Source: Shigella phage ESh26
Direction: 5' to 3' (one strand)
DNA: 64,000 nt
Sequence record: ON528736
Shown: positions 61,408-61,863 of the stretch, piece after piece
Position numbering within the stretch: position 1 is the stretch's first letter
Layout: every line of letters begins with the position of its first letter
Notes under the pieces: model-generated
The model's input: only the letters and a program-made list of their open reading frames with translations
What the model was told of the DNA's origin: nothing
Database searches by the model: none
Position numbers and translations under genes: made by a program

Positions 61408-61863
61408 TTATTTTAAATCATCTGCCCAATCGAGTTTAAGAGGCTCTTTGTATTCACGATCTAATACGACCGGAATTTGTACATCACCGCTAAATGATAA
61501 GGGCCCAACATTATAAGACAATGTTATATGCGGTGTGTAATCATCAAAATCATGTGTAGCACCTAGTGCCCGCGCATACATGTGTCGACAGCGCAGATAT
61601 TCAGAATCTAGCACAAGTACAAGAGTCGATCCATCTTGTGTTTTCCATACTTCTAAATGTCCAGAAGAAGCTACTTCAAAACTTCCGCTTGATGGAACAT
61701 ACGGAACATTTACTCTTGAATAACATATGGTCGAATGAATTTTTTCTCTAGGAACTGGATTAGGAACACGTAAAGAGCGCTGGAGTTCTTCCAGCGCATC
61801 AAGTGTTAATTCTGAAAACTTAGCTGCTACATAAAGACCCGTTGAAAAGTCTTTAAATTCCAT
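61408..61863 (-). CDS. 57B: 2H phosphoesterase 57B (Acb1-type cyclic-oligonucleotide nuclease)
   Basis: 151 aa; two H-x-T-x motifs (HSTICY, HITLSY); upstream of 57A. Confidence 0.75.

Follow-up and report, generated by a model that had tools for sequence, protein, structure and literature searches.

The small open reading frame (ORF) that follows gene 57A in Shigella phage ESh26 (sequence record ON528736) raises the question of what its product does. A preliminary description took it for 57B, a 2H phosphoesterase of the anti-CBASS (Acb1) type, while database entries for such proteins often read 'RNA ligase'. We analysed the ORF within a stretch of 64,000 nucleotides of this phage, here called the window. 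We are close to certain that it is acb1 (gene 57B) of a T4-like phage, standing at the end of a 1 - 57A - 57B block, and that it encodes a T4-identical protein of ~17 kDa, which by this identity should be a single-domain, metal-independent 2H phosphodiesterase that counters CBASS. The finding is already known, since a relative of T4 here carries the very sequence of T4 Acb1. It brings no new biology; its value lies in annotation, in host-range prediction and in correcting 'RNA ligase' and 'hypothetical protein' labels.

The acb1 reading frame and its start

A single ORF fits positions 61408-61863. It lies on the minus strand, which the preliminary description did not give, runs from an ATG at 61863-61861 to a TAA stop at 61410-61408, and is free of frameshifts and internal stops (Table 1). 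Alignment to T4 57B/Acb1 (NP_049750.1), which had been proposed as the check on the gene's identity, gave 100% identity over 151 residues (151/151, T4 residues 2-152), with neither His motif lost. In nucleotide sequence, the coding region differed from T4 57B by five synonymous and no non-synonymous changes, and from KFS-EC3, the closest database phage in the acb1 segment, by one synonymous change. Because the differences from both phages are solely synonymous, acb1 is under purifying selection.

Table 1. Positions of acb1, its sequence motifs and the adjoining genes in the window
Feature	Position	Strand	Basis or remark
acb1 (gene 57B) CDS	61408..61863	-	151 codons + TAA stop; ORF listing
TAATG junction	61861..61865	-	57A stop overlaps acb1 start by one base
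First catalytic motif, H43-S-T45-I (= T4 H44/T46)	61726..61737	-	Within HSTICY
Second catalytic motif, H112-I-T114-L (= T4 H113/T115)	61519..61530	-	Within HITLSY
C-terminal lid, residues 144-151 LDWADDLK (T4 145-152), including W146 (T4 W147)	61411..61434	-	Identical to T4
Gene 57A, tail-fibre assembly chaperone	61863..62105	-	Pfam PF17594 GP57, 2.6e-50; PHROG 1002; directly upstream of acb1
Gene 1, dNMP kinase	62105..62818	-	Pfam PF21448 (DNMK), 5.4e-104; T4 gene map; upstream of 57A
Candidate T4 late-promoter consensus match inside gene 1, TATAAATA	62461..62468	-	Pattern match; ~360 nt upstream of 57A
Internal-protein-like gene	61078-61335	-	PHROG 3499, 85 aa
Internal-protein-like gene	60768-61001	-	PHROG 8111, 77 aa counted from MKTFKEF

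The start region of the gene reads ATAATGG, where T4 has ATGATGG. The 57A stop is TAA in the window and TGA in T4, and as a consequence of this single A/G difference the first ATG of T4 57B is lost, reading ATA. The same arrangement was found in KFS-EC3. The gene therefore starts at what is Met2 in T4, so its product is one residue shorter at the N-terminus than the T4 annotation and each residue number in the window protein is the T4 number minus one.

The lost first ATG could mean that acb1 has fallen effectively silent, left unexpressed for want of the start annotated in T4. Against this, the second ATG is intact within the TAATG overlap, in an arrangement identical to that of KFS-EC3, and the uninterrupted ORF with only synonymous differences from T4 speaks for selection that continues. 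By tblastn, the protein was present in 1470 phage records, 498 of which carried a product at least 99% identical to it, which likewise argues against a silent gene. On the grounds of the intact second ATG, the uninterrupted ORF and the purely synonymous changes relative to T4, we rejected the classification of acb1 as a pseudogene or silent gene.

The TAATG overlap suggests that acb1 is translationally coupled to 57A. The candidate late promoter inside gene 1 would fit the middle and late phases in which 57B/acb1 is mainly expressed in T4 (bioRxiv 10.64898/2026.03.30.715471). A scan for sigma-70-type promoters and terminators around acb1 returned 17 sites against a shuffle expectation of 12.6 +/- 3.0, and yielded no reliable acb1 promoter.

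Family membership, catalytic residues and proposed mechanism

The preliminary description had rested the 2H assignment on the strings HSTICY and HITLSY, both of which are present in the exact ORF, the two HxT motifs standing 69 residues apart. Among the ATG-initiated ORFs of at least 100 amino acids in all six frames of the window, acb1 was the only one to contain two such motifs (1/78). Taken alone, this motif pair is weak evidence, and the statistical weight lies with the profile and pairwise scores. The product matched Pfam PF23474 (Anti-CBASS protein Acb1) over the entire profile (positions 1-144 of 144) at E=2.6e-60, scoring 202.7 bits where the curated cut-off is 27 bits, and matched PDB 7t26 (Acb1) over residues 8-148 at E=4.1e-62. 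Together with the T4 identity, these scores bear out the assignment to the Acb1 type.

Acb1 has been defined as a compact 2H phosphoesterase with an HxT/HxT tetrad, H44, T46, H113 and T115 in T4, where Y12, W74, F107 and W147 stack on bases, E141 reads adenine and residues 145-152 form a lid (Hobbs et al. 2022, PMC9117128). Each of the nine residues to which that work assigns a function in T4 Acb1 (9/9) occurs in the window protein at position n-1: beside the tetrad (Table 1) they are the base-stacking aromatics Y11, W73, F106 and W146, and the adenine-reading E140. In T4 Acb1, H44A is inactivating, and in the structure of the FBB1 homologue the C-terminal lid shuts over the bound ligand (PMC9117128). 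T4 Acb1 lacking residues 145-152 gave no Panoptes-dependent cell death, which its authors read as a requirement for the lid in catalysis (bioRxiv 10.1101/2025.08.21.671373).

We also aligned nine sequences: the window protein, T4, FBB1 and one homologue each from six other phages, namely a Krischvirus, an Aeromonas Tulanevirus, an Acinetobacter Lazarusvirus, a Vibrio Schizotequatrovirus, a Klebsiella Slopekvirus and the 440-kb jumbo Salicola phage SCTP-2. Identity of the six further homologues ranged from 47% down to 27%; the HxT/HxT tetrad and the tyrosine equivalent to T4 Y12 were invariant throughout the alignment. The compact 2H phosphoesterase fold was assigned through sequence homology to 7t26 (68% identity, residues 8-148), a single-sequence AlphaFold2 model of the product being too poor for fold comparison (mean pLDDT 37.9, pTM 0.30). 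By its ORF, sequence identity, motifs, family membership, synteny and purifying selection, the gene is acb1, and no feature of its sequence speaks against this.

LigT, too, belongs to the 2H superfamily. The product could be read as an RNA-repair or RNA-ligase enzyme, either a LigT-like 2'-5' RNA ligase or a cyclic phosphodiesterase, serving phage or tRNA RNA metabolism and not immune-signal degradation. The description of PHROG 755 as 'RNA ligase', the same product name in many GenBank phage records and RefSeq, and the position of acb1 near a tRNA cluster all point that way. The sole Pfam match of the product, however, was PF23474, and no LigT or 2'-5' RNA ligase family in Pfam matched it at E up to 0.1; for want of a LigT-type match we rejected the 'RNA ligase' identity given by PHROG 755 and RefSeq. 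The identical T4 protein was, moreover, purified from infected cells by tracking 3'3'-cGAMP cleavage and accounts for that activity in the lysate, T4 delta-acb1 has lost cGAMP-cleaving activity and is CBASS-sensitive, and the T4 pocket fits cyclic di- and trinucleotides only and cannot accommodate cA4 (PMC9117128). We therefore consider an RNA-ligase role extremely improbable. The name, which in PHROG is no more than a descriptive label, appears to have been inherited from the broader 2H/LigT superfamily.

For the Acb1 reading, the substrates, chemistry and in vivo anti-CBASS effect of the window protein should be those published for the identical T4 protein. The Acb1 family was founded on T4 57B, so the statement in the preliminary description that the T4 orthologue degrades cyclic oligonucleotide immune signals holds; the T4 protein needs no metal to cleave cyclic di- and trinucleotides that contain adenosine (3'3'-cGAMP, cUA, cAAA), and does not cleave cGG or cA4 (Hobbs et al., PMC9117128). 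In the mechanism we propose, the residues equivalent to T4 Y12, W74, F107 and W147 would stack on the bases of the cyclic di- or trinucleotide, E141 would read the adenine N6, and the C-terminal lid would close on the ligand. The ligand, thus strained, would bring an adenosine 2'-OH into line with the 3'-5' phosphodiester above H44/T46/H113/T115, and acid-base catalysis would open the ring via a 2',3'-cyclic phosphate intermediate to a linear 3'-phosphate product such as GpAp. The CD-NTase messengers 3'3'-cGAMP, cUA, cAAA and cAAG would in this way be removed before CBASS effectors are activated, sparing the infected cell its abortive-infection suicide, with cGG and cA4 expected to be non-substrates. 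As the last gene of the conserved 1 - 57A - 57B block, acb1 would probably be translated in coupling with 57A.

In published T4 experiments, signals treated with Acb1 no longer activated the effectors Cap5, Cap4 and CapV, an effect that the H44A/H113A mutant did not have, and delta-acb1 and wild-type T4 were compared on hosts carrying Yersinia aleksiciae and E. coli CBASS operons (PMC9117128). In a T4 transposon library, 57B/acb1 was dispensable on K-12 and was depleted under plasmid-borne CBASS, a case of conditional essentiality (bioRxiv 10.1101/2025.11.20.689424).

Gene neighbourhood, a second countermeasure and Panoptes

The order gene 3 - 1 - 57A - Acb1 is kept in Tulanevirus, Lazarusvirus, Schizotequatrovirus, Krischvirus and Slopekvirus. 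In the Aeromonas and Krischvirus phages 57A is annotated before the Acb1 homologues, and in the Acinetobacter, Vibrio and Slopekvirus phages an unnamed small ORF occupies the 57A position; the downstream side of acb1 is variable among the Straboviridae examples. Over the 2.3 kb around acb1, identity was 99.3% to KFS-EC3 and 97-99% to T6, PST and many more, while the last 25 kb of the window showed only 96-98% identity over 94-96% of the length to the best database records. Since match levels vary in this way by segment, the genome is a mosaic, without an identical record in the collection. Judged by these matches, the window belongs to a mosaic Tequatrovirus, T4-like and distinct from T4.

Where T4 carries ipI, the gene for its anti-GmrSD internal protein, the window instead has two small internal-protein-like genes directly downstream of acb1 (Table 1). 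Phages PST and GiZh have similar genes, which are annotated there as ipV and ipVI. Likeness of the pair to T4 IpI is limited to the first ~26 residues, and tblastn with T4 IpI, IpII and IpIII found no match in the window at E<1e-3. Both genes are preceded on the minus strand by the same block, TAATTTCACAAAGTTGTTTACA...GTAGTGATACTATTA (61366-61410 and 61036-61080), which contains TTTACA-17-TACTAT with an upstream TG and is followed by a shared start, ATGAAAACTTTC. This repeated promoter-plus-leader block looks like a cassette boundary through which internal-protein genes could be exchanged.

Two other regions of the window were noted. ARAGORN identified a cluster of 11 tRNA genes at 58704-59724 on the minus strand (Arg, His, Asn, Tyr, Met(CAT), Thr, Ser, Pro, Gly, Leu and Gln), whereas T4 has eight annotated tRNAs, interrupted by the homing endonuclease gene segB; His, Asn and Tyr are the extra ones in the window. 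A Tk.4-like macro-domain ORF at 47376-47840 on the minus strand (Pfam PF01661, 3e-8) is only 58% identical to T4 Tk.4, an unusual divergence. The adjoining vs.1, regB, vs.3 and vs.4 share 98-100% identity with T4, and we therefore take this ORF to be a locally diverged or exchanged gene for an ADP-ribose-binding protein or hydrolase.

The window also holds vs.4/acb2, encoding a cyclic-oligonucleotide sponge, at 49526-49789 on the minus strand with its stop at 49523-49525. Its product is identical to T4 Vs.4 (88/88 aa) and matches Pfam PF24729 Acb2_Tad1_hairpin at 7e-20. By sequence, then, both known T4 CBASS countermeasures, Acb1 and Acb2, are carried in the window. The preliminary description had considered at least one dedicated counter-defence enzyme to be confirmed. 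The gene identity behind that statement stands; the count was an understatement in view of the T4-identical vs.4/acb2, and the word 'confirms' draws its force from identity with a tested T4 protein. Intact Acb1 and the Acb2 sponge predict that ESh26 resists CBASS that signals through adenosine-containing cyclic di- and trinucleotides.

Acb1 may also carry a cost. Type II Panoptes, which guards cA3, restricts Acb1-encoding Tevenvirinae; escapers inactivate acb1, and the natural phage Bas43 has a nonsense mutation in the gene (PMC13577387). T4 Acb1 consumes 2'3'-c-di-AMP, and its over-expression activates Panoptes (bioRxiv 10.1101/2025.08.21.671373). For type I Panoptes the trigger is Acb2: in T4 infection acb2, and not acb1, was necessary (PMC12657218). 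As Acb1 cuts immune signals yet can set off Panoptes, it serves as a countermeasure but is potentially a liability as well, and its presence in ESh26 along with the Acb2 sponge predicts sensitivity to Panoptes-like guard systems that sense the loss of decoy cyclic nucleotides.

The restriction, the escapers, the Bas43 allele and the over-expression result would all suit a stronger proposal, in which acb1 is a net liability that serves mainly as a Panoptes-type trigger. Panoptes triggering, however, results from the very activity by which Acb1 acts against CBASS and offers no alternative to it. We give next to no credence to an acb1 that is a net liability in this sense or one silenced through its start, and retain the reading of a working anti-CBASS enzyme. 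In Escherichia phage BYEP02 (OR757454.1, 89372-89901), the tblastn match to Acb1 fell in two pieces spanning 530 bp versus 453 bp; either a natural disruption comparable to the nonsense allele of Bas43 or an error of assembly may account for this.

A more speculative suggestion, which we think rather doubtful, concerns acb1 in ESh26/KFS-EC3-like phages as a group. In these phages, T4 Met2 would be the functional N-terminus and Acb1 dosage would be set by coupling to 57A, and ESh26, where T4-identical Acb1 and Acb2 are combined with internal-protein genes of a non-T4 cassette, might differ from T4 in its profile of defence evasion and Panoptes liability.

Comparison with known systems

The closest known system is T4 itself. 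There, too, 57B sits after genes 1 and 57A, and an early-type promoter block downstream of acb1 is common to T4 and the window. The two differ in the downstream neighbour, which is ipI in T4 and a different pair of internal-protein genes in the window.

Acb1 of the Erwinia phage FBB1 (PDB 7T26, apo; 7T27, with 3'3'-cGAMP) is 68% identical over the whole domain (E=4e-62). It has the same HxT/HxT tetrad, the same adenine-reading Glu and a C-terminal lid with a Trp. Unlike the window protein, it has F at the position of W73 and Y at that of F106 among the stacking aromatics, and carries one inserted residue after about position 79.

More distant is 2H PDE-9 (PDB 9Q2G/9Q2Y, deposited as 'Anti-CBASS protein Acb1'), which matched over residues 7-118 at E=0.004 with both His motifs aligned. 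It falls in structural group 3 together with T4 Acb1 and also degrades 3'3'-cGAMP, but its lid is N-terminal, whereas that of T4 Acb1 is C-terminal (bioRxiv 10.1101/2025.08.21.671373). The two differ as well on 2'3'-c-di-AMP, which 2H PDE-9 cleaves poorly, so that Panoptes is not triggered, and which T4 Acb1 cleaves, triggering it (bioRxiv 10.1101/2025.08.21.671373).

Acb2, the Vs.4 protein of T4, shares with Acb1 its target, the second messengers of CBASS, but has an unrelated fold (the hairpin domain of Pfam PF24729). It sequesters these signals without hydrolysing them (PMC10312549; PMC12657218).
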